This document shows, piece after piece, positions 1-41,710 of a stretch of 52,387 nucleotides of DNA (the stretch's first letter is position 1; each line of letters starts with the position of its first letter). Below the pieces are notes generated by a model that saw only the letters and a list, made by a program, of their open reading frames with translations, searched no databases and had not been told where the DNA came from. The DNA lies in assembly GCA_011176635.1 (NCBI GenBank), contig DUEC01000014.1:1-52387 (forward strand), read 5' to 3'. The translations under genes were made by a program, and so were the position numbers. This DNA is from Dehalococcoidia bacterium (GTDB lineage: Bacteria; Chloroflexota; Dehalococcoidia; Dehalococcoidales; BS750m-G39).

Positions 1-1200
1 CGGATGTATGCTACTAACCGCCCGGCAGCGATTTTCTATGCGATGGGCATTACCCAGCACTCTCACGGCACCGATAACGTCATCGCCACTGCCAACCTGG
101 CAATGCTCACCGGAAACGTGGGCAAGCCGGGCACGGGGGTAAACCCATTGAGGGGGCAGAATAACGTCCAGGGAGCCTGTGACGTGGGTGCCCTGCCTAA
201 CGTCTACCCTGGCTACCAAGCAGTGGCTGACGGCGATATCAGGAGCAAGTTTGAAGCCGCCTGGGGAGGCTCGTTGCCGCAAGAGCCCGGGCTGACCATC
301 ACCGAGATGATTGATGCCGCCTACGACAGGAAGATAAAGGCTATCTACCTTATGGGGGAGAACCCTCTGCTCAGCGAGCCCGATATCAGCCACGCCAGGG
401 AGGCTTTAGAAAAGCTTGATTTCCTGGTGGTCCAGGACATCTTCCTCTCCGAGACGGCCCAGCTGGCCGATGTCGTCCTGCCCGGGGCCAGCTTTGCCGA
501 GAAGGAGGGCACCTTCACCAACACCGAGCGGCGGGTACAGAGGGTAAGAAAGGCGATAGAGCCGATAGGCGACTCCAGGCCCGACTGGTGGATTACCTGC
601 CAGGTAGCTAAGAAAATGGGCAACGGCGGTTTTGATTTCGCCAGCCCGGCCAAGATTATGGACGAGATTGCCTCTCTCACCCCCAGCTACGGGGGAATCA
701 GCTATAAGCGCTTAGAGAAAGGCGGTTTGCAGTGGCCTTGTCCAACCAAAGAGCACCCCGGGACGCCCATTCTTCATACCAAGCAGTTTACCCGGGGCAA
801 GGGGCGCTTTATCCCCCTGGAGTACAAGCCGCCGATGGAGCTTCCCGATAGGAAATACCCGCTGGTCCTGACCACGGGACGCAGTCTCTACCACTTCCAC
901 ACCGGCACCATGACCAGAAGGGTAGAAGGGCTCAATATACTTAAAGGGGAGGCGGTGGAGATGAACCCTGAGGATGCCTCGGCTCTGGGCATCGCTGATG
1001 GCGAGAAGGTAAAGGTCATCTCAAGGCGGGGAGAGGTAACCGCCACTGCCAAAATAACCGGGGTTTCACCGCCGGGGGTGGTATTCATGGCCTTCCACTT
1101 CGCCGAAAGCCCGGCTAATATGCTGACCAACCCCGCTATCGACCCGGTGGCAAAGATACCCGAGTACAAGGTCTGCGCCGCCAGGGTCGAGAAGATATAG
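1..1200 (+). CDS. fdhA: Formate dehydrogenase alpha subunit (molybdopterin oxidoreductase), C-terminal ~400 aa; 5' end outside window
   Basis: The ORF is open to the window edge. The translation reads like the core and C-terminal molybdopterin-dinucleotide-binding domain of Fdh-type enzymes (GRSLYHFHTGTMTRR; VEMNPEDA..GIADGEKVKVISRRGEV; PGVVFMAFHF; DPVAKIPEYKVCAARVEK). Confidence 0.8.
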   Translation, partial: RMYATNRPAAIFYAMGITQHSHGTDNVIATANLAMLTGNVGKPGTGVNPLRGQNNVQGACDVGALPNVYPGYQAVADGDIRSKFEAAWGGSLPQEPGLTITEMIDAAYDRKIKAIYLMGENPLLSEPDISHAREALEKLDFLVVQDIFLSETAQLADVVLPGASFAEKEGTFTNTERRVQRVRKAIEPIGDSRPDWWITCQVAKKMGNGGFDFASPAKIMDEIASLTPSYGGISYKRLEKGGLQWPCPTKEHPGTPILHTKQFTRGKGRFIPLEYKPPMELPDRKYPLVLTTGRSLYHFHTGTMTRRVEGLNILKGEAVEMNPEDASALGIADGEKVKVISRRGEVTATAKITGVSPPGVVFMAFHFAESPANMLTNPAIDPVAKIPEYKVCAARVEKI

Positions 1201-1238
1201 CCGAAGCATGGCTCTGAGTCAGGCGTAAGGGGTAAAAA

Positions 1239-1892
1239 ATGAAAACAATCACGGCACAAAAACCATTTGAGGAGCTGAGCGAAGCTCTCAGCGGAGCGGA
1301 GAGGATATATGTGGTGGGCTGCGGCACCTGCGCCACCATGCTGCACACCGGCGGCAAATCCGAGGTTCTGGATATGAAAGAGAAGCTTGAGGCGGCAGGT
1401 AAAAAGGTTACCGGATGGATGGTCATCCCTACCGCCTGCGACGAACTCAGCAAAGACGCCCTGGGAGAGAGCATTCAGGAAATTGAGCAAGCCGATTGTA
1501 TCCTGGTCATGGCCTGCGCCTTCGGGGTCCAAACCGTTAGCCTTTATAGCGATAAGCCGGTCTATCCGGCACTAAACACCCTGTTCGTCGGCAAGGAAGA
1601 AACACCGGGGCACTTTATCGAGGTCTGCATGCAGTGCGGCAACTGCATTCTAGCCAGGACGGCGGGTATCTGCCCCCTGGTCAGATGCGCCAAGAGCCTG
1701 CTCAACGGGCCCTGCGGCGGCTCGGTAGACGGCAAGTGCGAGGTATCGCCCGATATACCCTGCGCCTGGCAAATAATCTATGACCGCCTGGCGGCTCTGG
1801 GGCAGTTAGACAAACTGGAGGAGATTGTGCCCATTCGGGACTGGAGCACCAGCCGCGAGGGAGGGCCCCGCACCATTATTATATCGGACTAA
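1239..1892 (+). CDS. metV: MetV-like zinc-finger partner of methylene-THF reductase (MTHFR_C-type domain)
   Basis: Cys-rich C-terminal half (CMQCGNC..CPLVRCAKSLLNGPCGG..GKCEV..CAW) is typical of acetogen-type MetV. It lies in the same strand cluster as metF. Confidence 0.65.
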   Translation: MKTITAQKPFEELSEALSGAERIYVVGCGTCATMLHTGGKSEVLDMKEKLEAAGKKVTGWMVIPTACDELSKDALGESIQEIEQADCILVMACAFGVQTVSLYSDKPVYPALNTLFVGKEETPGHFIEVCMQCGNCILARTAGICPLVRCAKSLLNGPCGGSVDGKCEVSPDIPCAWQIIYDRLAALGQLDKLEEIVPIRDWSTSREGGPRTIIISD

Positions 1893-1914
1893 ACCAGACT
1901 TTTAAAGGACGGCA

Positions 1915-3348
1915 ATGAATACCAGCGACAAGAGCGAGCGCTTCTTAAGCCAGGGGGACGAGCCGGAGCACAACCCTGAGGAAGCCGCCATCAGGATGTG
2001 GCTCAGGGTCTTCGTCACCATAAGGTGGATTACCATTCTGGGCATTATTTCAGCCACCCTGGTGGCGTCAAGGATATTCGACATTCAGTTCCCCATAGCC
2101 GCCGCTTTCGGAACATGTGGTTTTGTCGCCCTGTGTAACCTGGCGCTGTTATTCCAGGCTCGAAGAATAGAAAAGATGCCGGCCAGCCAGGTAGTCCGCA
2201 AGGCTAGAACTGTTGGTACCATCCACCTCTTGCTTGACCTGCTGGCATTCATCGTACTGCTTCATTTCACCGGAGGAATAGAGAACCCCTTCGTCTTCTA
2301 CTTTGTGCTCCACATCATCGGGGCTAGCATAATGCTCCACTATAGGGTAGTTTACATGTTAGCCATCTCGAAAATTGTTGCGGTTATGCTGCTGGTCGGC
2401 TTGGAATATAGTGAGGTGATACCTCACGTCAATCTAGCCGGATTTGCTCCCCCCACACTATACCAGCAAGAAAGCTATATTCTGGCTGTTCTTGTTGTTT
2501 TAGCCACCGCTCTCTTCGCCACTGCCTATATGGCCACCTCGGTCCAGGGCGAGCTAAGAAAGAGGCAGCGTGAGGTGGTGCGACTAACTCAGCGCCTGCT
2601 GAAGAAGAGGACCGGGGAGCTGAAGCAGGCTTCAAGGGAAGTAGCCAAGCTGGAAGAGGCCAGGGACCGCTTCCTCCGCTTTCTGGGGGTAACCGTTCAC
2701 GACCTGAAAGCGCCACTCACCGCCATTCAGAGTTACTTCTGGGTCATGCTGGGCGGATTTGCCGGGGAAATCACCGAAAAGCAGAGGAATATGCTGGAGA
2801 GAAGCAGCCAGAGGATTAAAGAACTGCTGACCCTGGTCAGCGACCTTTTGGATATTCCCCGCATTGATACCGGACAGATTACCCAGGAGATGAAAGACGT
2901 CTCTTTGAGCCAGCTAGTCAAGGCTTCTATAGCCGACTTGAGTGAACAGGCGAAGCAGAAGAAGGTAAAGCTAAAGGCAGAAATCCCTCAAGGTCTGCCC
3001 AAGATTCACGGCGCCGGTCCCAGGCTCCAGCAGGCGATAACCAACCTGATAGGCAACGCCATCAACTATACGCCCGAGGGGGTGGTGACCATCAGGGTAA
3101 AGGAAGGGGATAAGGCGATAGAGGTTGAAGTTATTGATACCGGCATTGGTATCCCCCCTGACGACCTGCCCCATGTCTTTGACGACTTCTTCCGCGCCAG
3201 CAATGTGGAGGTGAAGGGGACCGGTCTGGGGCTATCCATAACCAAGAGGATTGTGGAAACTCACGGGGGCAGGATAAGGGCTGAGAGCCCCTGCCCGGAG
3301 ACCAACAAGGGGAGCAGATTTAGTTTTACTCTGCCCAAGAAACGTTAA
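1915..3348 (+). CDS. Membrane sensor histidine kinase
   Basis: N-terminal half is multi-pass hydrophobic, followed by a coiled coil, the H-box VTVHDLKAPLTAI, and HATPase_c boxes (NLIGNAINYT, DTGIGI, GTGLGLS). Confidence 0.85.
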   Translation: MNTSDKSERFLSQGDEPEHNPEEAAIRMWLRVFVTIRWITILGIISATLVASRIFDIQFPIAAAFGTCGFVALCNLALLFQARRIEKMPASQVVRKARTVGTIHLLLDLLAFIVLLHFTGGIENPFVFYFVLHIIGASIMLHYRVVYMLAISKIVAVMLLVGLEYSEVIPHVNLAGFAPPTLYQQESYILAVLVVLATALFATAYMATSVQGELRKRQREVVRLTQRLLKKRTGELKQASREVAKLEEARDRFLRFLGVTVHDLKAPLTAIQSYFWVMLGGFAGEITEKQRNMLERSSQRIKELLTLVSDLLDIPRIDTGQITQEMKDVSLSQLVKASIADLSEQAKQKKVKLKAEIPQGLPKIHGAGPRLQQAITNLIGNAINYTPEGVVTIRVKEGDKAIEVEVIDTGIGIPPDDLPHVFDDFFRASNVEVKGTGLGLSITKRIVETHGGRIRAESPCPETNKGSRFSFTLPKKR

Positions 3349-3369
3349 ACTTAAAGGGAGGAGAGGACG

Positions 3370-4287
3370 ATGAAAGCGGGAACCAACCTGGAGAAGGTCC
3401 TGGAAAGTGGGATGTTTGCCGTCACCGCCGAGGCCGGCCCGCCCAAGGGTACCAGCGCCGCCGTAATGCAGCGGAAGGGAGAGGCGCTTCGTCACTGCTG
3501 TGACGCCGCCAATGTGACCGATAATCAGACAGCTATCGTGCGCATGTCCAGCCTGGCTGGCTGCGTTCTGCTCAAGCAGCAGGGCGTCGACCCGGTGATG
3601 CAGATAGTCTGCCGCGACCGCAACCGGATAGCCATTCAAAGCGACGTCCTGGGGGCTATAGCCCTGGGCATTGGCAATATCCTCTGTCTTTCCGGTGACC
3701 ACCAAAAGTTCGGCAACCACCCCACGGCCAAGAATGTCTTTGATATTGACTCCATTCAGTTGATTCAAGCCCTGAAAAACATGCGCGACGAGAAGAAGTT
3801 CCTCTGCGATGAAGAGGTCTCCGGGGAAGTGCCCATGTTCATCGGGGCCGCCGCCAATCCCTACGCCGACCCCTTTGAGTTCCGCTTAACCAGGCTGGCC
3901 AAGAAGGTCAAGGCGGGAGCCGACTTCATTCAGACCCAGGCGGTCTACGATATAGCCAAGTTCGCCAAGTGGATGAAGATGGTTACCGACCGCGGGCTGG
4001 ACAAAGAGACACACATTCTGGCCGGGGTGATACCCATAAAGTCGGCGGGAATGGCGCGCTACATGAGAGACTATGTTTCCGGGGTAAGCGTCCCCGACGA
4101 GATAGTTTCCAGGATGGAACAGGCCAAGGAGACCAAGGAAGAGGGAGTCAGATTAGCTGTTGAGATTATCGAACAGCTCAAAGAGATACCCGGAATCCAC
4201 GGCGTCCATATTATGGCCGTAGGCTGGGAAGACATCGTCCCTGAAATCGTAGAACAGGCTGGATTATTGCCCAGGCCTGTATTATAA
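3370..4287 (+). CDS. metF: Methylenetetrahydrofolate reductase (acetogen/anaerobe type)
   Basis: MTHFR-like sequence throughout (FAVTAEAGPPKG, ANVTDNQTAIVRMSS, DFIQTQAVYD). An SD-like GGAGGAGAGG lies upstream. Confidence 0.85.
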   Translation: MKAGTNLEKVLESGMFAVTAEAGPPKGTSAAVMQRKGEALRHCCDAANVTDNQTAIVRMSSLAGCVLLKQQGVDPVMQIVCRDRNRIAIQSDVLGAIALGIGNILCLSGDHQKFGNHPTAKNVFDIDSIQLIQALKNMRDEKKFLCDEEVSGEVPMFIGAAANPYADPFEFRLTRLAKKVKAGADFIQTQAVYDIAKFAKWMKMVTDRGLDKETHILAGVIPIKSAGMARYMRDYVSGVSVPDEIVSRMEQAKETKEEGVRLAVEIIEQLKEIPGIHGVHIMAVGWEDIVPEIVEQAGLLPRPVL

Positions 4288-4302
4288 TGGCAAGGAGGAG
4301 AT

Positions 4303-4698
4303 ATGCCTAAGAAGATATTGGCCGTTGATGATGACCCTGACATCCGGGATGCCTTAACCATGATTCTCGAATCTCAAGGTTACAAGGTGATCACCGCCCA
4401 GGACGGGATAGAGGCTTTAGCCAACCTCAAGGCGGAGAAGCCGGACCTGATGATTCTCGACCTGTTGATGCCCAAGATGGACGGCTGGGCGGTCTGCAAA
4501 GAGCTCCAAGACCCGAGGTGGTCAAAGTACCGGGGTATACCCATCCTGATTCTAACCTCGGTGAGGGAGGAAGCCAGCCGCCGGCGCTACGAGCTGGAGA
4601 CCGGCCTGGAGCTGGACGTGGATGACTACGTGGAGAAGCCCTTCAGCCCCGACGTCCTGCTGGAGAGGGTGAGTCGGCTCATTAAAAAGAAGGGCTGA
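4303..4698 (+). CDS. Single-domain response regulator (CheY-like receiver)
   Basis: Acidic pocket VDDDPD, acceptor context LMILDLLMP, conserved T (LTS) and K (EKPF). No output domain. Confidence 0.85.
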   Translation: MPKKILAVDDDPDIRDALTMILESQGYKVITAQDGIEALANLKAEKPDLMILDLLMPKMDGWAVCKELQDPRWSKYRGIPILILTSVREEASRRRYELETGLELDVDDYVEKPFSPDVLLERVSRLIKKKG

Positions 4699-4706
4699 TA
4701 TAAGAA

Positions 4707-5105
4707 ATGGAAAAGCGAGCTAAAATCCTCCTCGTTGACGATGACGCCGATTTCGTGGAGGCGACCCGGCTCGTCCTGGAGAGCCAGCGCTATGAGGTAA
4801 TCGTGGCCTCCGACGGCGATGAGGGACTGCGCAAGGCGAGGGAGGAAAACCCCGATTTAATTCTCCTGGATGTAATAATGCCGGTCAAAGACGGCTTTAC
4901 CGCCGCCGAGCAGCTTAAAAAAGACCCACACCTCAGCCAAATTCCGACCCTGATGCTGACCGGTTTCGCCGCCAAGGGAACGAAAACCTCAATACCGGTC
5001 AGCCGGGGCTTTGCCCTCGAAGCCGAGGACTACATCGATAAGCCGGTCACCCCCGAAGAGCTACTGGCCAGGGTGGAAAAGCACCTGAAGAAGGCGGGCT
5101 CCTAA
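4707..5105 (+). CDS. Single-domain response regulator (CheY-like receiver)
   Basis: VDDDAD, LILLDVIMP, LTG, DKPV. It starts 8 nt after the previous receiver gene. Confidence 0.85.
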   Translation: MEKRAKILLVDDDADFVEATRLVLESQRYEVIVASDGDEGLRKAREENPDLILLDVIMPVKDGFTAAEQLKKDPHLSQIPTLMLTGFAAKGTKTSIPVSRGFALEAEDYIDKPVTPEELLARVEKHLKKAGS

Positions 5106-5280
5106 AGGGTCTTTTAAGAAACGCTCCTCGTTTTTTGAACCAGCTTTTTGTCTAACTATTTTGCCCCCGACGCTCGTCATCCCGAAAGACGCCTTAAGCA
5201 AGGCATCAATCCGGAGCTAGAAGCTCCGTTAAAAAATGCGGCCTGACTCCAACAAAACGTAAGTCAAAGGGGGGATAAAA

Positions 5281-5919
5281 ATGGTGAAGACTGGTGACCA
5301 AGCACCCAGAGAGGGACTGGGTAAGAAACTGAGGAGGCAATTCATAGCCGGCATTCTTGTCGCCATACCCCTCGGCGCCACCATAATAATATTAGTTTGG
5401 ATTTTTAATGCCATCGATAACCTTTTACAGCCGATAATCACCGACATCTGGGGGCGCACCATTCCGGGGGTAGGCTTCGGGGTGACCGTAGTACTGATTT
5501 ACATTGCCGGCGTTATCGCCAGCAATATTCTGGGGAAAAGGCTCATTCGCTACAGCGACTCTCTTCTAGTCAGGATACCGATATTCAGACAGCTCTACAC
5601 CGGCATCAAGCAAATAGTGGACAGCTTCTCGATCCCGGATAAGAGCGGTTTCTTAAGGGTAGTCCTGGTAGAGTTCCCCAGAAAAGGCATGAGGGCGATA
5701 GGCTTTGTCACCAACGAGCTGACCGATAAGTCGGGGCATAAACTCCTCAATATTCTGATACCTAACTCCCCTAACCCGATGAGCGGCTTCCTGCAGATAG
5801 TTAAAGAGGAGGAAGTAGTCCAGACTAAAGTATCGGTGGATGAAGCCCTCAAGATGATCGTCTCGGCGGGTAAAGTGACCCCCACCGGGGTGAGCGATAG
5901 ACTGGCTACTGCCGATTAA
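5281..5919 (+). CDS. DUF502-family membrane protein
   Basis: Two N-terminal TM helices and a conserved-looking core (RIPIFRQLYTGIKQ, FPRKGMRAIGFVT, PNSPNPMSGF). The family assignment is from memory. Confidence 0.55.
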   Translation: MVKTGDQAPREGLGKKLRRQFIAGILVAIPLGATIIILVWIFNAIDNLLQPIITDIWGRTIPGVGFGVTVVLIYIAGVIASNILGKRLIRYSDSLLVRIPIFRQLYTGIKQIVDSFSIPDKSGFLRVVLVEFPRKGMRAIGFVTNELTDKSGHKLLNILIPNSPNPMSGFLQIVKEEEVVQTKVSVDEALKMIVSAGKVTPTGVSDRLATAD

Positions 5920-8989: not shown

Positions 8990-9117
8990 GCGCCTATCCT
9001 CCTTTTGACAAATATTCTTTCACCCTCGCCCACCGACTCGTTTTCCACTGGATGTTAATTCTTCATTAGCCGAATGTCAACGGTCTCTATGAGTTGGGCC
9101 AAAAAGGGAGGGGAACA

Positions 9118-9179
9118 GTTTTCCCCAGAGTATTGACAGGTAGTAAAAAAAGTGCTATACGGTTGGACAGTTGACAAAC
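9118..9179 (+). promoter_or_regulatory. Promoter plus conserved leader, copy A (-35 TTGACA 9133-9138, 17-nt spacer, -10 TATACG 9156-9161)
   Basis: It matches 53/62 nt, ungapped, to the reverse complement of 13521-13582. It sits just upstream of the 9192 ATG. Confidence 0.6.
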
Positions 9180-9191
9180 AAAGAGGGAATA

Positions 9192-10295
9192 ATGAAAGGG
9201 AAAGCCTCCGCCATTGTTGCCCTGCTAGCTCTTCTGGTGCTAATCGTCACCCTGGTGACCATAGCAAACACCGAGTCAGCCATGGCCCAACCTGTTCTGG
9301 ATACCTGGCAGGTAATTCCCACGCCACCTGATGTAATGTGGAGCCCGGCGCCAGCCACCACCGGTTCATTGATAGATGTAGCTCTTGAGGATAGCACCAC
9401 TCTATATTGTGCTATCGGTTCTAATGTATATACGAGCACCGATAATGGCGCGACTTGGTCATCTGCAGATGCCGGCGTTGACACCATCTTTATGATAGCT
9501 ATGGCACCCGCCTACCCCAATATTCCTGTGGCGGGGCATGTCCTCGTCGGTGGTACTGAAGGCCTTGCCTCCTATTCTACTGATGGCGGGGCTAACTTCA
9601 CGTCACTCCCGCCGCTGCCCGCTGGCGGTAATGTCCAGATGGCGGCTGACACAGACTATGCCACCAACAACACTATCTATGCCGGCAGCAGCAACGGCAA
9701 TGTCTACCGGTGGGTTATCGAGACGAGTACTGATTGGGAGGAGATTAACACCACCATAGCCAATGTCAGCGGGCTGGTTGTTTGCTGCGGGAACCTGTAT
9801 GCCGCCGACGCCACCCCCACTGGCGGCGTATACCGAACGTATAACCCCACAGCCGCCACGCCCGAATGGGAACACCTCACCAACGGCCTTTCCGGCGGAG
9901 AGACTTTTAACCGGGTACCAAGTGCCCTTAGATGCTCTGCTACCGGTGATGGTTATGTTACCCTGTTTGCCATCGATACCGCTAACAATGTTCTTTATGA
10001 ATATATTGAGGCGCCAACGGGTGTGCTATGGCCCCGGATAATTCCACCAATTATCATTATTGCAGGTGGTGTAGGGTTTCTCGTGAAAAAATTACTCGAC
10101 AACAGAGCTAAAAAAATCGTCAGGCAGAAAATCAAGACACGTCTCCGCAAGGGTGCCGGTACTCAGCAAATCAGAGCAGAGAAGCCCATCAAGATAGATT
10201 TTGAAATACGCTTGAGGCCGGTCTCAGACCCCGGCAAGCAAGACATTGAAACAGAAGGTCCTTTAATCACTGATGAAGAGGGGGAGAAACCATGA
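9192..10295 (+). CDS. Membrane-anchored extracytoplasmic Asp-box (BNR) beta-propeller-like protein with basic cytoplasmic tail
   Basis: N-terminal signal/anchor (ASAIVALLALLVLIVTLV), Asp-boxes STDNGATWS and STDGGANFT, a C-terminal TM (IIPPIIIIAGGVGFLV), then a K/R-rich tail. ATG 9192 is preferred over the TTG at 9171. Confidence 0.6.
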   Translation: MKGKASAIVALLALLVLIVTLVTIANTESAMAQPVLDTWQVIPTPPDVMWSPAPATTGSLIDVALEDSTTLYCAIGSNVYTSTDNGATWSSADAGVDTIFMIAMAPAYPNIPVAGHVLVGGTEGLASYSTDGGANFTSLPPLPAGGNVQMAADTDYATNNTIYAGSSNGNVYRWVIETSTDWEEINTTIANVSGLVVCCGNLYAADATPTGGVYRTYNPTAATPEWEHLTNGLSGGETFNRVPSALRCSATGDGYVTLFAIDTANNVLYEYIEAPTGVLWPRIIPPIIIIAGGVGFLVKKLLDNRAKKIVRQKIKTRLRKGAGTQQIRAEKPIKIDFEIRLRPVSDPGKQDIETEGPLITDEEGEKP

Positions 10296-10885
10296 GCGAC
10301 TCACAGATTACCCTAAACCAGTTCTTCTCTCCAGAAAAGAAATTATCGCCTGAACAATTGTCCTCTCTAGAATCGAATAAGAAAGTGTCCTCGCTGAAAG
10401 AGAAGATTTGGAAAGAGACCAAGGTCAAAGGGCCCCTGGTACTCGATTTAATCATCAAGAAGACCGCAGAAATATTAGACATCGGCATCCTGGATATCAT
10501 GGTGAAGGCCTGGAATAAATACAAAATTCTCCTCAAATATCTGGATAAGGAAAAGTATCCTCCGGGTGAAACCTTCTTAGTTCCTCTGGCTGAACATACC
10601 ATCAAATCAGAACACCGTCCTTCCATAGAGATACTGATAAACGACCAACCTGCCGGCAAGATTGAGTTCAGCATCTCTATTTCTATCATGCTCGAAGGTG
10701 TAATCTTGAAAATCCAGGACGGAAAGATTAAGGGGATAACCACGGGGACCTGTAAAGGGAAGGGGGCATTCGCGTGTGAAAATGTTGTACTCCTGGAGAA
10801 GAAAACGGCCTCAATTCCTTTGCCGGGCTCAATCGACCTCGGCGAAGGCATACCTATACCTTCTCCGACCAAGCAACGCGGCTAA
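10292..10885 (+). CDS. Hypothetical protein (197 aa), translationally coupled to the propeller protein
   Basis: ATGA stop/start overlap at 10292-10295. I recognise no motif. The gene is AT-rich. Confidence 0.5.
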   Translation: MSDSQITLNQFFSPEKKLSPEQLSSLESNKKVSSLKEKIWKETKVKGPLVLDLIIKKTAEILDIGILDIMVKAWNKYKILLKYLDKEKYPPGETFLVPLAEHTIKSEHRPSIEILINDQPAGKIEFSISISIMLEGVILKIQDGKIKGITTGTCKGKGAFACENVVLLEKKTASIPLPGSIDLGEGIPIPSPTKQRG

Positions 10886-11013
10886 TCCCAGTCCTTACAC
10901 TCAATAAGGATATCAAAACAAAAAAGTTAACCGACACAAAATAGAGATTGAAAAAAGAAACCAGGGGGGTACGACTTAAGAAATCTATCCCTTTATGCTC
11001 TTTTAGAAACGTG

Positions 11014-13161
11014 CTAATGACCTTGGACTAAAACAAATCCTCTGCTTACCAAGTCCTTTAAGAAATTTACACACCCTGCTTCGGTACCGTCGAGTGATAT
11101 GTGATAGCTTTTTGCTAACTTGGACGCAATTTGATGAACGTTAGCCTTGCCATTGCAAAGTTCAAGGATATCCTTTGCCGACGATGTTATTGAAATCATC
11201 TTACCATCATTAAAGTTATAAACTACATACGTTTCCTCTGGAAGAACCTCGGTATCAACTCCTCGATTTATATTCTCTTGAATTTCCAATAAGTCGAAGT
11301 GGACTGTATTATAAGTCACCCCGTCTTTTAACCTTGGTACTGTATCGAACCATATTCCTTCCTGAGTCGAAGTCATGGATTTGTCCCCATCGGGGCTCTT
11401 CTCACTGATGAGTGACAGATTATTGATTCCATACCGGGAGAGATATAGGAGTAGATGCTCACGGTACAAACTTCCCCAGACTTTGAAGTTGCCATACTCA
11501 TCAGCTATCCGTTCTAAGAAAGCTTTGTATATTTCGCTCGCTTTTTCGTTGTTCAGCCCCGTGTTTACATCATAGTTATACCAAAGTTGAAAATCCTTAT
11601 TTTCATCTATCTGAATGCGACTGATTCCATATTGCTCTGGATGCTTTCTCGCTGGCGAATATTTCCCCAGAGTGAAAACACTGACGCCAACAGAATGGAT
11701 AATGTCCTTGTTGGAAAGTGCGAAATCTATGGTCTCTTGAGCTTCCTCTTCTATCTCTGTTGGGAAGCCAAAAAACAAGAAAGCGTGGTTCCATATTCCA
11801 GCTTTAGAGCTGTTCTTACACACTTCTGTGATGGTCTGTTTATCTATCCCCTTTTTCATCAAAGCCAAAACTCTATCGCATCCAGATTCTAAGCCGAATA
11901 AAAGCATTTTGAACCCGGCTTCGGCAATTTTACAGCAAAGAGCTGGTGTAAACTGGCGTTCGAACCTCGCATCGGCAAGACATTGGATATCTAACTTCCT
12001 TTCGATGATTTTTTCTGAGAGACTTTTGAAAACATTCGGTGCTATTGCCTCGTCAGAAAATGCAAAGTGACTAGTTCTGTACTTTTTAGACAGCTCCTGT
12101 AAATCATCGACTACTCTTTCACTGTGTCTAGGAACATATCTTTTGCCATAAATATAGCTGTGATCACAAAATGCGCACTTTCCCCAATAACAGCCTCTAC
12201 AGGACATGATTGGCAGAATTGGCTCGGGCGAGAAGTATAGATTCAAAGGGAAATCATCAAAACATGGGGTAGGCAGGGAATTTATGTCCTCTGGAGAACC
12301 AGGCTCGTTGACACATACTTCTGTTCCGTCATAATAGATCAGGTTGGGGACGGTACTTAGACTTTTTCCATCAGCGAGACATTTTGCAAGTTCTGATAAT
12401 GGACGCTCTCCTTCATATACAATGACACTATCAAGAAATGTTGAAAATAATTTCTTCACTTGTGGCAAAATGTCAGTCAAACGGGTAAAAATGCTTCCAC
12501 CGACCACAACATGGGCTTTACAGTTTGAGCGCTTAAGCAAGCGTGCCAAGGTTAGTCCAGGAATAATTTGCGAAATACCAACGATAGAGAGTCCTATAAT
12601 ATCTGGATTTTCCCGAAAAATATACGGTAGCAAATTATTCTCATAAATTTCAATGAATGGATTTTTTGCCCTATCCAGTGTAGCTTTTATGACATCACTC
12701 GATGATTTGTAAGAGTAATTCATTTCAAACGAAGTAAAACCTAGTTTTGTGGGGTAATATGCCACTGAGACTAGGGCGAGGGCTTGATTTACGATGCTTT
12801 GACTTCCAGAAAGTTTGGGGAAATTGTAGAAATTTTGCTTACTTCGAAATACCTTCTTTGCTCCATCAATCTCTTTAATTACTTGCGGAGCAAATGCCAT
12901 GACACAAAACAGAGTCTCATAATATTTTTGTTCAGCAGCGGATAACTTTACTTTCGAATCTAGCTTATCGAAATTATGGGATACTCGCTTGTACATTCTC
13001 CTTAAGTATTGCTTCGTCAAAATGATGTCGTAAGCCTCAACATTGAAATCCTTTTGAATTACATTATGACCCTCAGATTGCAAATAACTTGTCAACGAAG
13101 GCAAACTTAGGTACGGCTGAGTTGGCAGCCACTGTGGTGGGAAAATAAGCAGAATTTTCAA
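11014..13161 (-). CDS. Cobalamin-binding-domain (class B-like) radical SAM enzyme with C-terminal PqqD-like peptide-recognition (RRE) domain
   Basis: N-terminus KILLIFPP..IIGLSIVG..VVVGG (B12-binding-like), cluster motif CRGCYWGKCAFC, C-terminus AKDILELCNGKANVHQIASKLAKSY..GCVNFLKDLVSRGFVL (PqqD-like). TTG 13161 sits 7 nt after AAGGAGG; GTG 13167 is an alternative start. Confidence 0.8.
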   Translation of the reverse strand: MKILLIFPPQWLPTQPYLSLPSLTSYLQSEGHNVIQKDFNVEAYDIILTKQYLRRMYKRVSHNFDKLDSKVKLSAAEQKYYETLFCVMAFAPQVIKEIDGAKKVFRSKQNFYNFPKLSGSQSIVNQALALVSVAYYPTKLGFTSFEMNYSYKSSSDVIKATLDRAKNPFIEIYENNLLPYIFRENPDIIGLSIVGISQIIPGLTLARLLKRSNCKAHVVVGGSIFTRLTDILPQVKKLFSTFLDSVIVYEGERPLSELAKCLADGKSLSTVPNLIYYDGTEVCVNEPGSPEDINSLPTPCFDDFPLNLYFSPEPILPIMSCRGCYWGKCAFCDHSYIYGKRYVPRHSERVVDDLQELSKKYRTSHFAFSDEAIAPNVFKSLSEKIIERKLDIQCLADARFERQFTPALCCKIAEAGFKMLLFGLESGCDRVLALMKKGIDKQTITEVCKNSSKAGIWNHAFLFFGFPTEIEEEAQETIDFALSNKDIIHSVGVSVFTLGKYSPARKHPEQYGISRIQIDENKDFQLWYNYDVNTGLNNEKASEIYKAFLERIADEYGNFKVWGSLYREHLLLYLSRYGINNLSLISEKSPDGDKSMTSTQEGIWFDTVPRLKDGVTYNTVHFDLLEIQENINRGVDTEVLPEETYVVYNFNDGKMISITSSAKDILELCNGKANVHQIASKLAKSYHISLDGTEAGCVNFLKDLVSRGFVLVQGH

Positions 13162-13221
13162 AGGCACCGCCTCCTTACCTTGCTGCTAAAAAAGAACAAT
13201 TATCAACTTAAACGGGAGAAA

Positions 13222-13253
13222 GGGCGCTCCGAACCTCTATCTTCGGAGCGCCC
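13222..13253 (-). terminator. Strong hairpin (12-bp perfect stem, 8-nt loop) between peptide gene and radical SAM gene; likely partial terminator/attenuator
   Basis: Minus strand reads GGGCGCTCCGAA-gatagagg-TTCGGAGCGCCC followed by TTTCTCCCGTTT. It lies ~50 nt after the peptide stop codon. Confidence 0.6.
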
Positions 13254-13303
13254 ACGAAGTTGGTCAAGAACTTATCATACTAGTATTGGTTGTGGTTCTT
13301 ACT

Positions 13304-13495
13304 TCACCCTTCTTTCTTTTCGGGTTGAAGAATGTTGTTCTGCCCGCCGTTGATGTTATTTGCGGCAGCTAGCATTGCTTCCATCCCAGGGATTGCTCCA
13401 ATAGCCTCTTTCAGCACCGCCGGTGCAAATACCTTTAAAGCTTCTACCGCCTTTCTAACTTCCGCACTGCCAACTCCTCTTTTTCTCATCACCAT
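13304..13495 (-). CDS. 63-aa candidate precursor peptide (MVMRKRGVGSAEVRKAVEALKVFAPAVLKEAIGAIPGMEAMLAAANNINGGQNNILQPEKKEG)
   Basis: AGGAGG lies 8 nt upstream of ATG 13495. The gene is directly upstream of, and co-directional with, the rSAM/RRE gene. The N-terminus looks helical and a GG motif sits 12 residues from the C-terminus. Confidence 0.55.
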   Translation of the reverse strand: MVMRKRGVGSAEVRKAVEALKVFAPAVLKEAIGAIPGMEAMLAAANNINGGQNNILQPEKKEG

Positions 13496-13520
13496 AATTA
13501 TCACCTCCTTTCTGTTTTTA

Positions 13521-13582
13521 GTTTGTCAGGTGTCCAAATATATAGCACTTTTATTGCTATCTGTCAACACTCTGGGGAAAAC
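13521..13582 (-). promoter_or_regulatory. Promoter plus conserved leader, copy B (-35 TTGACA 13562-13567, 17-nt spacer, -10 TATATA 13539-13544, minus strand)
   Basis: It is an inverted copy of 9118-9179 (53/62 identical) and sits upstream of the peptide gene. Confidence 0.6.
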
Positions 13583-13776
13583 GTTTGCCAGGCTAGGCAA
13601 TAAACGGGTAAGGCGAGACCGCTTCAGAAGGCTTTCAACAAAACATTGTTTTGTGGCCTGGAATCACATCGGTTGCTCTTAAGCCGTGTGGCAATGTCTT
13701 GGCTAGAATAGGCTTATCTAAAGCCGTGTTGGAGAGCGATAACGACTACTGGATGCGGGCGGACGCTCCCGGCTTA

Positions 13777-13795
13777 ATGGTGGGCGGTACTGGAC
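13777..13795. repeat. 19-bp direct repeat = orphan copy of the tRNA-Val 3' end (distal att-like site)
   Basis: ATGGTGGGCGGTACTGGAC is identical to 35288-35306. The flanks do not form a tRNA: the T-loop sequence is absent. Confidence 0.7.
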
Positions 13796-13852
13796 GATAG
13801 ACAGAACTTTTGAGTCGGCTTTTAGTCTTACTATAAGCACCGTCTTTCTACC

Positions 13853-13880
13853 TTGATATCAGGCTGGAAACTAGTATAAT
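13853..13880 (+). promoter_or_regulatory. Candidate sigma70-type promoter of the first AOR gene (TTGATA-16-TATAAT)
   Basis: -35 at 13853-13858 and -10 at 13875-13880, ~40 nt upstream of ATG 13920. Confidence 0.4.
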
Positions 13881-13919
13881 GCTAGTATGCTTAAGAATAG
13901 TGAGAAAGGGACCTAAGAA

Positions 13920-21527: not shown

Positions 21528-22988
21528 ATGGAAATTAGGGTTAAGCAAAAGCGCATAGACGAAGAGCGCTTCCTGGAAATGCGCAAGGAGGTGCTGGCCC
21601 AATGGCCGACGGGCAAGGAGGTTGACCTTGAGGAGGCGGTAGCCTACCAGCTGAGTCTGCCGGAAAGCAAGAACTTCATGAAAGTTACCGAAAAAGCGCG
21701 CCAGGAAGGGGAAACCCTTATCTGGCCCAGGGCCGGCACCCCGGTCCTCGAGGACGAGATTGCCCTGGTCAAGACCCTGGTAGATGCCGGCATACGCCAC
21801 ATTCCGGTGACCATTGATAGCTATACTCGTTTGCTGCAGTTTGAAAAAGCTCAGCAGGCCCTGGAGGAGTCAATTAAGACTGGCCGCCCCATGCTCAACG
21901 GCTACCCCATCGTTAACCACGGCGTTAAGAAGACCAGGAAGGTGGTGGAAAGCGTTGAGGCCGCCTTTGTCCCTAGAGGCGCCGGCAGACTGGCCATGGA
22001 AATTGCCCTTGCCTCGGGTATGACGGCGGCGGGGAAGAGTTCACTCTTTGAATTTGGTAGCTACGAGAAAAAAACCACCCTGGAAGAATGCTTTGAACAC
22101 AGCCAGTATACGGACAGGCTGGCCGGATATTACACCGAAAGAGGCGCCATAATATCCACGGATATCCATGGACTTGTACCATCCGGCGTTTTTCCCTTCA
22201 GTGTCAATATAGCCTGTATAATCATAGACTCTCTGGTCGCCGCCGAGCAGGGGGTTAAAAGCATAATGCCCCAGACCCACTGTTTGGGACACATGGCGCA
22301 GGATATAGCCTGGATGAGGTTGATACCAAGATTGATGAGGGAGTACCTGGAAAAATTCGGCTATAAGGACGTTGTGGTCCCAGGCATACTGGCCAATCAG
22401 ATTCCTCTTTTCCCGGTTCCGCAGGGAATGGGCGGGGCCTTCGCCTACCTAAACTATACGGCCATGGTGGCGGCATTAGCTGAAGCCGAAGCGGTGTTTG
22501 TCAGGACTATTGATGAAGGGGCCGGTGTGGCCACAAGGGAGAGCCACGCTCTCAGCTATGAGTCGGCAAACTGGATTTTGAATGTGGTGAGGACACAAAA
22601 GATTAAATGTGAGATTGACGGTGTGGAAACAGAAGAGAAGGTAACCGATGTGGAAGTGAGGGCAATACTTGATAAGGTCCTGGAGCTCGGCGATGGTGAT
22701 GTAGTCATTGGCTCAATAAAGGGGGTCGAAGCTGGGGTGATTGATTCACCATTCAGCCCTAATATCAACATCAAAGACAAGGTGCTCGGCGTCAAGGATG
22801 TTACCGGAGCCTGCCGCTACCTTGAGTTCGGCAATCTGCCCATACCGGATGAGATTAAGGAGTTCCACCGGGAAAAGATAGCCGAGAGGGAGCGAGCCGA
22901 GGGAAGAAAGCTGGACTACCAGGTGGCGGTTGAGGACCTTTGGGCCTTAAGCAAGGGAAGAATAGTCGGCGCCCCCTCGGCCAGCTGA
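21528..22988 (+). CDS. Glutamate mutase epsilon (E) subunit-like adenosylcobalamin mutase component
   Basis: 486 aa. EVLAQWPTGKEVDLEEAV, WPRAG, TIDSYTR, AAEQGVK, RYLEFGN and SKGRIVG match my recollection of clostridial GlmE. Confidence 0.8.
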   Translation: MEIRVKQKRIDEERFLEMRKEVLAQWPTGKEVDLEEAVAYQLSLPESKNFMKVTEKARQEGETLIWPRAGTPVLEDEIALVKTLVDAGIRHIPVTIDSYTRLLQFEKAQQALEESIKTGRPMLNGYPIVNHGVKKTRKVVESVEAAFVPRGAGRLAMEIALASGMTAAGKSSLFEFGSYEKKTTLEECFEHSQYTDRLAGYYTERGAIISTDIHGLVPSGVFPFSVNIACIIIDSLVAAEQGVKSIMPQTHCLGHMAQDIAWMRLIPRLMREYLEKFGYKDVVVPGILANQIPLFPVPQGMGGAFAYLNYTAMVAALAEAEAVFVRTIDEGAGVATRESHALSYESANWILNVVRTQKIKCEIDGVETEEKVTDVEVRAILDKVLELGDGDVVIGSIKGVEAGVIDSPFSPNINIKDKVLGVKDVTGACRYLEFGNLPIPDEIKEFHREKIAERERAEGRKLDYQVAVEDLWALSKGRIVGAPSAS

Positions 22989-39268: not shown

Positions 39269-41710
39269 ATGAAAGCCGAACATCGGTTTCAGGTCCGGGA
39301 TTTTAAGGATGGAGAGAATAAAGTGCCGCAATTAGGAATTAAACAAGACGCAAAGTCCCAGGTCATAGAACACCTGGAAGAACAGGGTTACAAAGTAACC
39401 GAAGGGGCTAAACTCCTGGGGAAGTCAGGGGTTGAGCATACCTTTGACATACTGGCGCAGAGGGATAACGGCTCTACCCCTCACACCATTGCTATCTGTA
39501 TTACCGCCGGAAGCGATAGCGAGACCGAGGGGGGCTCTGTCTTTAGCTTTGCCACCAGAGCCTACGACGCCAGCGTTGAGGAAAAGATTCTTATCGCCAT
39601 CCCTGAGCTTGGCCAGGAAGCCAAGGAACTGGCCAAAAAGCAACGGATAAAGGTCATCGATGAGGAAGAAATAGGTTCGTTGCTTGACTTCAAGCCCCTA
39701 TCGCCATTCAAGCTGGAGGAGCTCAGCTTTGAAAGCAAGAAGCAACTGACGGAATCCCTGGCCGAGATGGGCTACCAGATTGAGGAAAAATCCAAGGTTA
39801 GAGGCCGGTCAGGGGTTGAACATACCTTTGATATATTGGCTTATGCCGACATAGAGGGAGTTGGTCACAGCCTGGGCATAGATTTCCTGGAGGGGGAAAG
39901 GGAGATAACCCTGGAACAGTTAGCCATATTTGATACCAAAGCCTACGAGGTGGGCATTGACGACAAGGTCATCGCCACCTCACTGCCGCTAAGCCCCCAG
40001 GCCCAGCAATTTACCCAGCAACAGCGGATAAGGGTCATTAAGTCAAAGAAGGGGAAGGGAAGCGCCGCTCAAGCCACCTCGGGCAAAGAAAAGCCGGCCC
40101 TAACAGATGAGAAGCCGACCATGATGGAGGAGAAACCGGCATCAGCAGAGGAGAAGCCGACCATGATAGAGGAGAGGCCGGCCAAAGAAGAGAAGCCAGC
40201 GGCTCCAGTGGCTGGACCCGAGTTCAAACAGTTGAGGCACGCGCCTCAGCCTGAAGCACTGCAGTTAATCCCCGAGGTGATAGCCAGAAGGTACAATGCC
40301 ATGCCCCTGGCTATATCCGGTCACACATTACAGGTAGCTATGGCCGACCCCAGCGATATATTCGCCCTGGAGGCTTTCTCCGCCTTAAGCCGGATGAGGA
40401 TTAAACCTATAGCCGCCGGCGCCAACGAGGTCAGGGAGGCTATCGACTTTAACTATAAAGGCTACGGCGAGATTGAAAAACAGCTTTCCCGTATCTCTTC
40501 CCCCGATGAGACCAACGCCGAGAGACTAGCCATTACCGCCGATACCGATGCCCCCTTAGCTCAGGCCCTTAACCTTATTATTGAAGAGGCGGTCAAAGCC
40601 CGCTCATCTGATATCCACATCGAGCCGGAAGAGGACCGCTTAAGGGTGCGCTACCGCATCGACGGCACCCTCCAGGACATGATGTCCCTGCCGCTGAACA
40701 TACACCTGGCCCTCGTTTCCCGAATCAAAATCCTGGCCGATTTGAACATCGCCGACCGCCACCGCCCCCAGGACGGCCAGTTCTCCACCGAGGCTAAAGG
40801 GCGGCAAATAGATATCAGGGTGGCTACTGCCCCCACGGTCAGTGGCGAGATGGCGTCGCTGCGCCTGTTGGACAAGTCGGTGGCTACTATAGGCATACCC
40901 GAGCTTGGCATGCTACCTGATAGCCTGGAAAAGTATGAAAATATGCTAAAAGTGCCCTACGGCATGATTCTGATTAGCGGTCCTACCGGCGCTGGTAAGA
41001 CTACCACCCTTTATGCCTCAATCAACTCCCTTGACTGCCTGGGGAGAAACATCATCACCATTGAAGACCCCGCCGAGTATCGGTTTAAGGATATCAACCA
41101 GATTCAGGTCAACCCTCAAGCCGGCATCACCTTTGCCACTGGCTTGAGGAGCATACTCCGCCTTGACCCCGACGTGATAATGGTCGGTGAGATACGTGAC
41201 GGCGAAACAGCTAACATAGCGGTTCAAGCCGCCCTGACCGGCCACCTGATGCTATCTTCTGTCCATGCCAGCGATTCAGCCGGCGTGCTATCCCGTCTAC
41301 TTGACCTGGACATAGAGCCCTTCCTAATCGCCTCAGCCGTTATCGGGGTTGTGGCCCAGCGGATGGTGCGCCGCGTTTGTCCTGATTGTGGCCATCCTAT
41401 TGAGGCCCCAATGGTAGAGCAGATGGCTTACCAAAAGGAAATCGGGGAGAAGCGGGCTGAATTCGTATACGGCACCGGCTGCAAGTCATGTGCTTACACC
41501 GGTTATCTGGGGCGAACCGGAATCTTCGAGATTCTAGCCATGAGCGACACCATAAGGGCGATGATTACCAGCCAGACGAACAGTAGTGATATCCATGCCC
41601 AGGCAATTAAGGAGGGCATGGTAACCATGATGAACGATGGTATGCGTAAAGTTAAGGAAGGCATCACCACACCCTCCGAGGTGTTGCGCAATGCCTACTC
41701 TGCAGACTAG
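39269..41710 (+). CDS. pilB: PilB/GspE-family pilus assembly ATPase with an unusual N-terminal extension (two Mrr-like modules + EKP repeat)
   Basis: T2SSE_N-like region (LIPEVIARRYNAMPLA..), Walker A GPTGAGKTTT, Asp/His boxes, and a tetracysteine motif (CPDC..CKSC). An alternative start is GTG 39323. Confidence 0.85.
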   Translation: MKAEHRFQVRDFKDGENKVPQLGIKQDAKSQVIEHLEEQGYKVTEGAKLLGKSGVEHTFDILAQRDNGSTPHTIAICITAGSDSETEGGSVFSFATRAYDASVEEKILIAIPELGQEAKELAKKQRIKVIDEEEIGSLLDFKPLSPFKLEELSFESKKQLTESLAEMGYQIEEKSKVRGRSGVEHTFDILAYADIEGVGHSLGIDFLEGEREITLEQLAIFDTKAYEVGIDDKVIATSLPLSPQAQQFTQQQRIRVIKSKKGKGSAAQATSGKEKPALTDEKPTMMEEKPASAEEKPTMIEERPAKEEKPAAPVAGPEFKQLRHAPQPEALQLIPEVIARRYNAMPLAISGHTLQVAMADPSDIFALEAFSALSRMRIKPIAAGANEVREAIDFNYKGYGEIEKQLSRISSPDETNAERLAITADTDAPLAQALNLIIEEAVKARSSDIHIEPEEDRLRVRYRIDGTLQDMMSLPLNIHLALVSRIKILADLNIADRHRPQDGQFSTEAKGRQIDIRVATAPTVSGEMASLRLLDKSVATIGIPELGMLPDSLEKYENMLKVPYGMILISGPTGAGKTTTLYASINSLDCLGRNIITIEDPAEYRFKDINQIQVNPQAGITFATGLRSILRLDPDVIMVGEIRDGETANIAVQAALTGHLMLSSVHASDSAGVLSRLLDLDIEPFLIASAVIGVVAQRMVRRVCPDCGHPIEAPMVEQMAYQKEIGEKRAEFVYGTGCKSCAYTGYLGRTGIFEILAMSDTIRAMITSQTNSSDIHAQAIKEGMVTMMNDGMRKVKEGITTPSEVLRNAYSAD

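Follow-up and report, generated by a model that had tools for sequence, protein, structure and literature searches.

A probable two-gene module for a modified Asn-rich peptide: a small precursor-like peptide and a B12-type radical SAM enzyme with a C-terminal recognition element in a Dehalococcoidia contig

Closest described systems

In peptide chemistry, some of the most difficult transformations are the work of cobalamin-dependent radical S-adenosylmethionine (SAM) enzymes, and not many of those that act on peptides are characterised so far. One of them is ApyD, a B12-dependent radical SAM enzyme of aminopyruvatide biosynthesis, which contains a recognition element (RRE) for peptides that are made on the ribosome and modified post-translationally (RiPPs) and methylates the C-beta of a peptide Tyr (PMC11117315). 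In contig DUEC01000014.1 (assembly GCA_011176635.1) of a Dehalococcoidia bacterium, of which a stretch of 52,387 nucleotides (positions 1 to 52,387, called the window below) was analysed, the gene of a small peptide is directly followed by the gene of a B12-type radical SAM enzyme with a C-terminal RRE, both on the minus strand. The pair recurs in at least eight further microbes, all uncultured, so that the two genes probably make up a minimal module for a RiPP. The preferred reading, with a probability of roughly two in three (0.68), is that the RRE docks the leader of the peptide and that the enzyme acts on the Asn-rich tail through a 5'-deoxyadenosyl radical and cobalamin, C-methylation being the most likely reaction. 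A peptide and its maturase had been proposed in an initial annotation of this DNA, and this interpretation is supported.

The architecture is not unprecedented, since ApyD is already known as an RRE-containing B12 radical SAM enzyme acting on a ribosomal peptide. Like the window enzyme it is of class B; a gain of +14 Da was recorded when it was co-expressed with cobalamin uptake genes, and the apy cluster also lacks a protease. The differences are considerable: the window enzyme scored 102.8 bits against the ApyD model (NF050148, cut-off 750), with the B12/radical SAM core alone being aligned, and no MNIO, P450 or methyltransferase partner adjoins its gene. No MNIO of the ApyH/ApyI type was seen among the annotated neighbours in the window either (an FAD enzyme, an AOR and open reading frames (ORFs) of 374 and 197 aa). 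The precursors are unrelated, with an Asn-rich tail ending in KKEG here and G-Y-L-Y-D, ending in Asp, for ApyD.

PoyB/PoyC (TIGR03975, rSAM_ocin_1) and MpcB (clavusporins) are cobalamin radical SAM enzymes which methylate unactivated carbons of ribosomal peptides, often iteratively. TIGR03975 was the best NCBIfam match of the window enzyme, though its 123 bits stayed under the cut-off of 281.85. Leaders of the NHLP/Nif11 type are found in proteusin precursors, whereas the window peptide matched nothing in Pfam or NCBIfam, including any precursor or leader family, in line with the initial annotation, which had recognised no family for it. The cysteine motif of PoyC is Cx7Cx2C (PMC11285071), as in MpcB, against an invariant Cx4Cx2C here. 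MpcB needs a separate partner protein, DUF5825, with an RRE-like role suggested by its authors (clavusporin preprint), whereas the RRE is fused in the window enzyme.

By structure the best match was OxsB of oxetanocin biosynthesis (PDB 5UL4, E 5e-18, about 670 aligned columns), which has about equal size, a multi-domain layout and also Cx4Cx2C (PMC9204698). The identity is 14%, the substrate of OxsB is a nucleotide and not a peptide, and OxsB was not among the matches to the isolated C-terminal domain, so nothing suggests an RRE in it. The only solved structure matched by sequence (E 1.3e-9) was MgmA (PDB 9CCB; TIGR04014), the glutamine C-methylase of methyl-coenzyme M reductase, a class B enzyme which C-methylates a residue with an amide-bearing side chain in a polypeptide. 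The window enzyme reached 67.6 bits against the TIGR04014 cut-off of 360. In the alignment MgmA, which has 450 aa, shows the canonical Cx3Cx2C; it lacks both the helical insertion and the RRE.

Minimal two-gene systems were reportedly recognised before, Haft and Basu being said to have described the SCIFF/ranthipeptide pairs as such radical SAM peptide systems in 2011. In these pairs a precursor gene is followed by a single radical SAM maturase, without dedicated protease or transporter, and the maturases are SPASM-domain enzymes which work on Cys-rich peptides. The window enzyme is of the cobalamin type and the window peptide has no Cys.

Three features are new. The precursor family has an Asn-rich core and no database annotation; the enzyme clade combines Cx4Cx2C with a Rossmann domain that is split and an RRE at the C-terminus, and falls outside every curated model; and the two genes form a self-contained layout with a conserved intergenic hairpin. 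The system is compact and consists of a single peptide and an enzyme that brings a docking domain of its own. The enzyme family, with neither a curated model nor a studied member, is common in the hard-to-culture Dehalococcoidia, Aminicenantes and Methanoperedens. No paper on this peptide–enzyme family was found in a search which covered few subscription-journal papers and is weak evidence of absence.

The enzyme and its recognition domain

Two start codons follow the Shine-Dalgarno sequence of the enzyme gene (Table 1), GTG 13167 only 2 nt and TTG 13161 8 nt past AAGGAGG. TTG 13161 is the likely start, giving 715 aa, because of this spacing, the alignment with the ATG of the homologues (MKILLIFPPQW) and a 715-aa database entry (P0001). 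The initial annotation had correctly described a small ORF with a good Shine-Dalgarno sequence upstream of and co-directional with a large protein; it left the strand unstated, and its length of 716 aa is replaced by 715 or 717 aa, depending on the start.

The radical SAM core was recognised by Pfam with 53.6 bits (PF04055, cut-off 29.5). An AlphaFold2 model of the enzyme, built with 25 homologues, reached a pLDDT of 92.5 and a pTM of 0.91, and shows in order a split Rossmann N-terminal domain, a radical SAM barrel, a helical region, a disordered, low-confidence linker (residues 591-601) and a compact C-terminal domain. Rossmann strands lie at residues 4-40 and 140-250 and are split by helices at about 41-136, which are the large helical insertion noticed at first in a cobalamin-binding-like N-terminal domain. 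The top PDB matches of the model in Foldseek were OxsB, TsrM, MgmA, AprD4 and CysS; the alignments to OxsB and TsrM exceeded 600 columns, and both domains were aligned to OxsB, TsrM, MgmA and CysS. In NCBIfam the 15 best matches, and most of the others too, were class B (cobalamin-type) radical SAM families. All matches stayed far below their curated cut-offs, those of all curated methylase families included, which places the enzyme outside every curated family.

The cluster motif C326-x4-C331-x2-C334 (CYWGKCAFC) was invariant in the alignment of the 25 homologues, at 41-81% identity. The unusual Cx4Cx2C spacing, pointed out from the first, therefore characterises the family and is no peculiarity of the window enzyme. 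An additional Cys in front of the motif ('SCRGC') is not conserved.

For the C-terminal domain, sequence and fold agree, on which its assignment as an RRE is based. PqqD (PF05402) was matched over profile positions 2-67 of 67 with 39 bits (cut-off 23.4). The domain modelled alone (pLDDT 92.4) has the three-stranded sheet and three-helix fold of solved RREs, and its top PDB matches were PqqD (5SXY, TM-score 0.73 on target), TbiB1 (5V1U), 6JX3, TglI (8HI7) and CteB (5WGG). TbiB1, which was solved with its leader bound, and 6JX3 are lasso-peptide leader-binding proteins. The PqqD likeness of the C-terminus, read at first by eye, was confirmed in this way.

Table 1. Positions of the features described in the text (window coordinates)
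Feature	Position	Strand	Evidence or remark
B12-type radical SAM enzyme with C-terminal RRE	11014..13167	-	ORF from GTG 13167, 717 aa
Shine-Dalgarno AAGGAGG of enzyme gene	13170..13176	-	sequence
N-terminal cobalamin-binding-type Rossmann domain, about residues 1-300	12268..13167	-	PF02310 sub-threshold, DSSP, Foldseek
Radical SAM core, residues 323-483	11719..12201	-	Pfam; cluster motif at 12166-12192
PqqD-like RRE, residues 603-717	11017..11361	-	Pfam and domain model
PqqD Pfam match, residues 647-712	11032-11229	-	PF05402
Precursor-like peptide gene	13304..13495	-	ATG 13495 to TGA 13304, 63 aa
Shine-Dalgarno AAGGAGG of peptide gene	13504..13510	-	8 nt before ATG
Conserved leader, about residues 10-44	13364-13468	-	family alignment
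Variable Asn-rich tail, residues 45-63, ANNINGGQNNILQPEKKEG	13307-13363	-	family alignment
Intergenic hairpin and tail	13210..13253	-	stem-loop 13222-13253, then UUUCUCCCGUUU
Right repeat arm, promoter-like region of peptide–enzyme operon	13518..13589	-	TTGACA 13567-13562, TATATA 13544-13539, then TTGGACAccTGACAAAC
Left repeat arm, same promoter-like sequence	9111..9182	+	precedes convergent operon
Convergent two-gene operon behind left arm	9171..10885	+	374-aa and 197-aa ORFs

The peptide, the hairpin and the predicted modification

Nine sequence clusters with a common leader make up the family of the peptide. A word-indexed search of 5.8 billion proteins with a profile of four peptide sequences returned only 4 clusters, and an exhaustive search of 1.84 billion representatives with a hidden Markov model (HMM) extended the family to nine. 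Over the nine clusters the leader reads E-V-x-K-A-V-E-x-L-K-x-F-x-P-E-V-L-x-x-A-I-x-E-I-P-G-M, with K15, A16, L20, P25 and V27 invariant, and in 8 of the 9 a short, variable Asn-rich tail forms the C-terminus. The tail is NNINGGQNNILQPEKKEG in the window peptide and INLNNTFNNNKQPTPKPTK, NNNNNNNNNPEVKS, HNFQNHNNSKEVQRQI, GNNINVSK, FDNNNNNKKDDKK, HNFNFNL or KDNNFNINNKKR in other members. A small ORF that lies beside a maturase and in which the recognition region is conserved while the core varies has the layout of a RiPP precursor.

In all eight clusters with DNA seen, the window included, the gene of a 69-83% identical enzyme lies directly downstream of the peptide gene; the ninth cluster (P0129) stands outside this count. 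Among leader codons for identical residues 31 of 101 pairs differ synonymously, and the differences at codon positions 1, 2 and 3 numbered 67, 57 and 82, with the third position varying most. This substitution pattern fits a translated coding sequence. The Shine-Dalgarno context AAGGAGGTGATAATT of the window peptide is identical in locus L165 and similar in L003, L164 and L169. The GG motif given for the peptide in the initial annotation occurs in the window peptide only and is absent from the other eight family members, and a double-glycine leader cleavage site was rejected on this ground. When the six-frame ORFs of 163 loci with more distant enzyme homologues, at most 45% identical, were scanned with an HMM, no peptide homologue was found, so the peptide family is confined to a clade of about 70% or higher enzyme identity.

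Two side observations concern the peptide. In L164 (P0124, 9 contigs; enzyme 81% identical) the peptide ORF at 3771-4049 overlaps the enzyme start by ATGA; P0124 is likely frameshifted relative to the other members, since another frame would read ...ENHPNPTKD and end at a stop codon ahead of the hairpin. Repeats of the large HEAT-repeat proteins P0125, P0130 and P0131 are matched by the leader profile too, with 7-10 stretches per protein (e.g. DVRKAAVETLGKLAPEVL), and the leader resembles a single HEAT-like helical hairpin.

Between the two genes, about 50 nt 3' of the peptide stop codon, lies a hairpin with a perfect 12-bp stem (GGGCGCUCCGAA, 8-nt loop, UUCGGAGCGCCC; deltaG -26.1 kcal/mol). 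It is the sole perfect stem of at least 11 bp with a 3-10 nt loop in the window, and 20 block shuffles gave 1 such stem in total. A hairpin with a U-run occurs at this place in 7 of the 8 lineages (window, L164, L165, L003/L004, L169, L172/L173 and L174). The stem sequences of the seven are unrelated, and a position which is kept while the sequence drifts points to a function. The U-runs are 4-10 long, with 6-10 U at the equivalent sites of L164, L165, L169, L172 and L174 and the weakest run in the window; the T-rich tract reported there at first is thus present together with its stem, but it is weak as a terminator tail. Leaky terminators and 3'-stabilisers of this arrangement occur in lantibiotic operons. 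It is plausible, judging from these sequences, that the hairpin acts as a leaky terminator or a transcript-stabilising stem and raises the precursor mRNA over the enzyme mRNA.

Nothing else accompanies the pair. Homologues of the FAD enzyme, the AOR and the 374-aa and 197-aa ORFs were sought in the other peptide–enzyme loci and none was found, and the genes flanking those loci differ among themselves (XRE-type regulators, GNAT, PIN, O-methyltransferase, LysE). As no further neighbour is common to the loci, the conserved unit is two genes. It contains neither protease nor exporter, in agreement with what had been remarked for this cassette.

The following course would be expected from these parts. 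The 63-aa product would consist of the conserved N-terminal leader and the short variable Asn-rich C-terminal core, and the PqqD-like domain of the enzyme would dock the leader. The core could then reach the active site, where a [4Fe-4S] cluster held by Cys326, Cys331 and Cys334 would cleave SAM to the 5'-deoxyadenosyl radical, beside a cobalamin presumably held in the N-terminal Rossmann domain. The most likely outcome would be C-methylation of unactivated carbons, once or several times (+14 Da each time), either on Asn or on the hydrophobic residues alternating with Asn (N-I-N, N-F-N, N-L-N). The hairpin with its U-run would end or stabilise most transcripts, keeping the peptide mRNA far above the enzyme mRNA.

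Several points weigh against this reading. The B12-binding domain (PF02310, residues 179-260) did not reach the gathering score of 32.1, with 27.7 bits and E 2.6e-6; a precomputed match to it is present in most enzyme homologues. Many homologues from Dehalococcoides and Methanoperedens, 42-45% identical, keep the RRE and have no small ORF beside them. P0124 lacks the Asn-rich tail, its ORF running through the hairpin into the enzyme start, and in L170/L171 the spacer has just 57 nt and no hairpin. A consensus terminator scan found no terminator at the window hairpin, whose U-tract is poor: the rule for intrinsic terminators asks for at least 5 U in the 8 nt right after a GC-rich stem, and UUUCUCCC has only 4. 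No C-methylated Asn was found in the literature, in a limited search. The leader looks helical and HEAT-repeat-like, whereas known RREs bind leaders as a beta-strand (PMC11117315).

The kind of chemistry is the least firm part. C-methylation, taken by itself, is a tentative call somewhat short of even odds, made by analogy with ApyD, PoyB/C, MpcB, TmoD and MgmA. That the B12-dependent radical would modify Asn itself (for example by C-methylation) in an N-x-N-type core, which would be chemistry new to RiPPs, is more doubtful still. The same precursor–maturase pair might instead perform a C-C or C-heteroatom cross-link, a rearrangement or a conversion of the Asn side chain, which seems unlikely on balance but is the strongest of the alternatives. 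B12 radical SAM enzymes of RiPP pathways also make biaryl cross-links (PbsB); OxsB, the best structural match with the same Cx4Cx2C, performs a ring contraction and not a methylation; AprD4, also a top structural match, is a dehydratase; and the scores against all curated methylase families fell far under the cut-offs. On the other side, most characterised class B enzymes which act on peptides (PoyB/C, MpcB, ApyD, TmoD, MgmA) are C-methylases, one of them, MgmA, is the only PDB match by sequence, and the aromatic or Cys pairs which typify cross-linked RiPPs are missing from the cores.

The small ORF could also encode a mini-protein with an accessory or regulatory role, consisting of one HEAT-like helical hairpin, with the substrate of the enzyme encoded elsewhere. 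This would suit the match of the leader profile to HEAT-repeat proteins and the homologues of D. mccartyi, many other Dehalococcoidia and Methanoperedens which keep the RRE without an adjacent small ORF; for the peptide-less Dehalococcoides homologues a substrate elsewhere must in fact hold. It is nevertheless improbable here, because a conserved leader with a hypervariable tail is the layout of a RiPP precursor, adjacency was strict in 8 of 8 lineages checked with nothing else conserved, and other RRE-bearing relatives adjoin other precursor-like ORFs. Least credible of all is a ribosome-stalling attenuator in which the ORF is a leader peptide whose Asn codons would respond to charged tRNA-Asn and so set the read-through into the enzyme gene. 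In its favour, runs of Asn (of up to 9, in L165) stand near the 3' end of a short ORF which is followed by a hairpin and U-run. Against it, the 35-residue N-terminal part, unneeded for attenuation, is conserved at the protein level with synonymous changes; no consistent antiterminator pairing of the Asn-codon region with the left terminator arm was found in six lineages; in the window some 50 nt separate the stop codon from the stem; an Asn run is lacking in L164 and a hairpin in L170; and the RRE domain would be left unexplained.

If modification by the enzyme is true, a new peptide modification would be gained, together with a functional annotation for thousands of genes named 'BchE-like/Fe-S oxidoreductase'. 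An Asn-rich core is not a known target of B12 radical SAM enzymes, as far as the literature found shows, and chemistry on Asn, if true, would mean a first-in-class peptide family from a self-sufficient two-gene module and a first functional handle on the large uncharacterised Cx4Cx2C B12 radical SAM family. Plain C-methylation of hydrophobic residues, if that is true, would be a routine addition to RiPP genome mining.

Wider family and genomic setting

More than 2,000 database proteins match the enzyme. A precomputed PqqD match was present in 82 of the 120 best homologues, and most of the rest are equal in length. RRE-bearing homologues occur in Dehalococcoidia (including D. mccartyi and Dehalogenimonas), Methanoperedens and Aminicenantes. 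RRE-less homologues of about 590 aa (L009-L083), 35-43% identical and with the motif GCYWxKCxF, are widespread in Nitrospira, Nitrospina and anammox bacteria (Scalindua). Because many members have no adjacent small ORF, the conclusion on the peptide is not extended to the whole enzyme family. One of them is the homologue of Dehalococcoides mccartyi (CP019999, L001 5001-7133), 42% identical and with the PqqD domain kept but no upstream small ORF, which sits among rdhA/rdhB, MarR and MFS transporter genes; in L094 and L096 the homologue comes directly after an rdhA-rdhB pair.

Other small ORFs stand beside several of the more distant relatives. Upstream of an RRE-bearing homologue with 34% identity, L099 has two tandem ORFs ending in MTCCCCCC (3415-3522 and 3740-3844; MIRVEELDLYVEELEDIEAAAEDIEINMTCCCCCC and one almost identical to it), which seem to represent another precursor family. 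In L168 a peptide with a repeated YVDDCLRSYSQKTGQPEI unit (3-272) is followed by two further radical SAM genes (287-3182), a SPASM domain being recorded for the first only, and by a 48% identical B12 radical SAM homologue with RRE (3185-5341), so that this locus resembles a RiPP-type cluster of larger size. Multi-copy precursors are suggested by the paralogous ORFs of ~88 aa (three to four, with the pattern KPxIxTEQSFETSALACGKT...GLCGNWV) which lie downstream of homologues with 32-33% identity in L113 (6560-6832) and L118 (6901-8109, minus strand). Upstream of a 54% identical enzyme, L175 has a 67-aa ORF (300-503) with a good Shine-Dalgarno sequence and the ending ELDIC (…DWLNDILDRMPELDIC). 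It is unrelated to the Asn-rich peptide family, which means that the precursor type switches between about 59% and 70% enzyme identity. Such varied precursor-like ORFs beside distant relatives support a general role of the enzyme as a peptide maturase with changing substrates.

The module was probably acquired horizontally, since it lies in a low-GC island of a higher-GC genome. This genome is probably that of a Dehalococcoidia member, its PilC being 74-78% identical to proteins named as Dehalococcoidia. The GC content of the cassette is 0.41, against 0.55 for the rest of the window, and other peptide–enzyme cassettes have 0.37-0.42. Besides the cassette, the island (about 10000-13900, GC 0.38-0.45 between flanks of 0.55-0.60) takes in the 197-aa ORF and, of the 374-aa ORF, the 3' third.

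A 72-nt inverted repeat, unmentioned in the initial annotation, brackets the cassette and a convergent operon with its two arms facing inward (82% identical). They are the only two copies in the window, where none is expected by chance. Each arm contains TTGACA, a 17-nt spacer, TATAnn and then TTGGACAnnTGACAAAC, which is a sigma-70-like promoter core; a consensus promoter scan omitted the right arm, as its rule wants T at position 6 of the -10 hexamer. The arms are either a common promoter/operator which co-regulates both operons or the ends of an inserted element of 4.5 kb. In the convergent operon the 374-aa ORF (likely ATG 9192) has N- and C-terminal hydrophobic segments and weak BNR/Asp-box matches, and the 197-aa ORF is joined to it by an ATGA overlap. 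This operon is tied to the cassette solely through the common promoter-like repeat, and the repeat was sought in all 174 loci without being found, so any link between cassette and operon is specific to this genome. The divergent intergenic region from the peptide promoter to the AOR gene contains two 22-nt direct repeats (13668-13689 and 13708-13729) with 77% identity and a distance of 40 nt; each holds a GGCTT-N5/6-AAGCC-type palindrome, and together they may be the binding site of a regulator.

An Rfam scan of the whole window found one tRNA only, with no cobalamin riboswitch ahead of the peptide–enzyme operon. PADLOC gave no match for the peptide, the enzyme or the two convergent ORFs, and thus no sign of a known defence system. 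Elsewhere in the window, a PilB/T2SSE-type ATPase with an N-terminal match to Mrr_cat (restriction endonuclease) is encoded at 39269-41710 (+), beside PilC and a prepilin-type gene. A homologue of the methylaspartate/glutamate mutase E-chain is encoded at 21528-22988 (+) among CoA-transferase genes; mutases of this class are cobalamin-dependent, and if this holds here, the host uses corrinoids elsewhere too.

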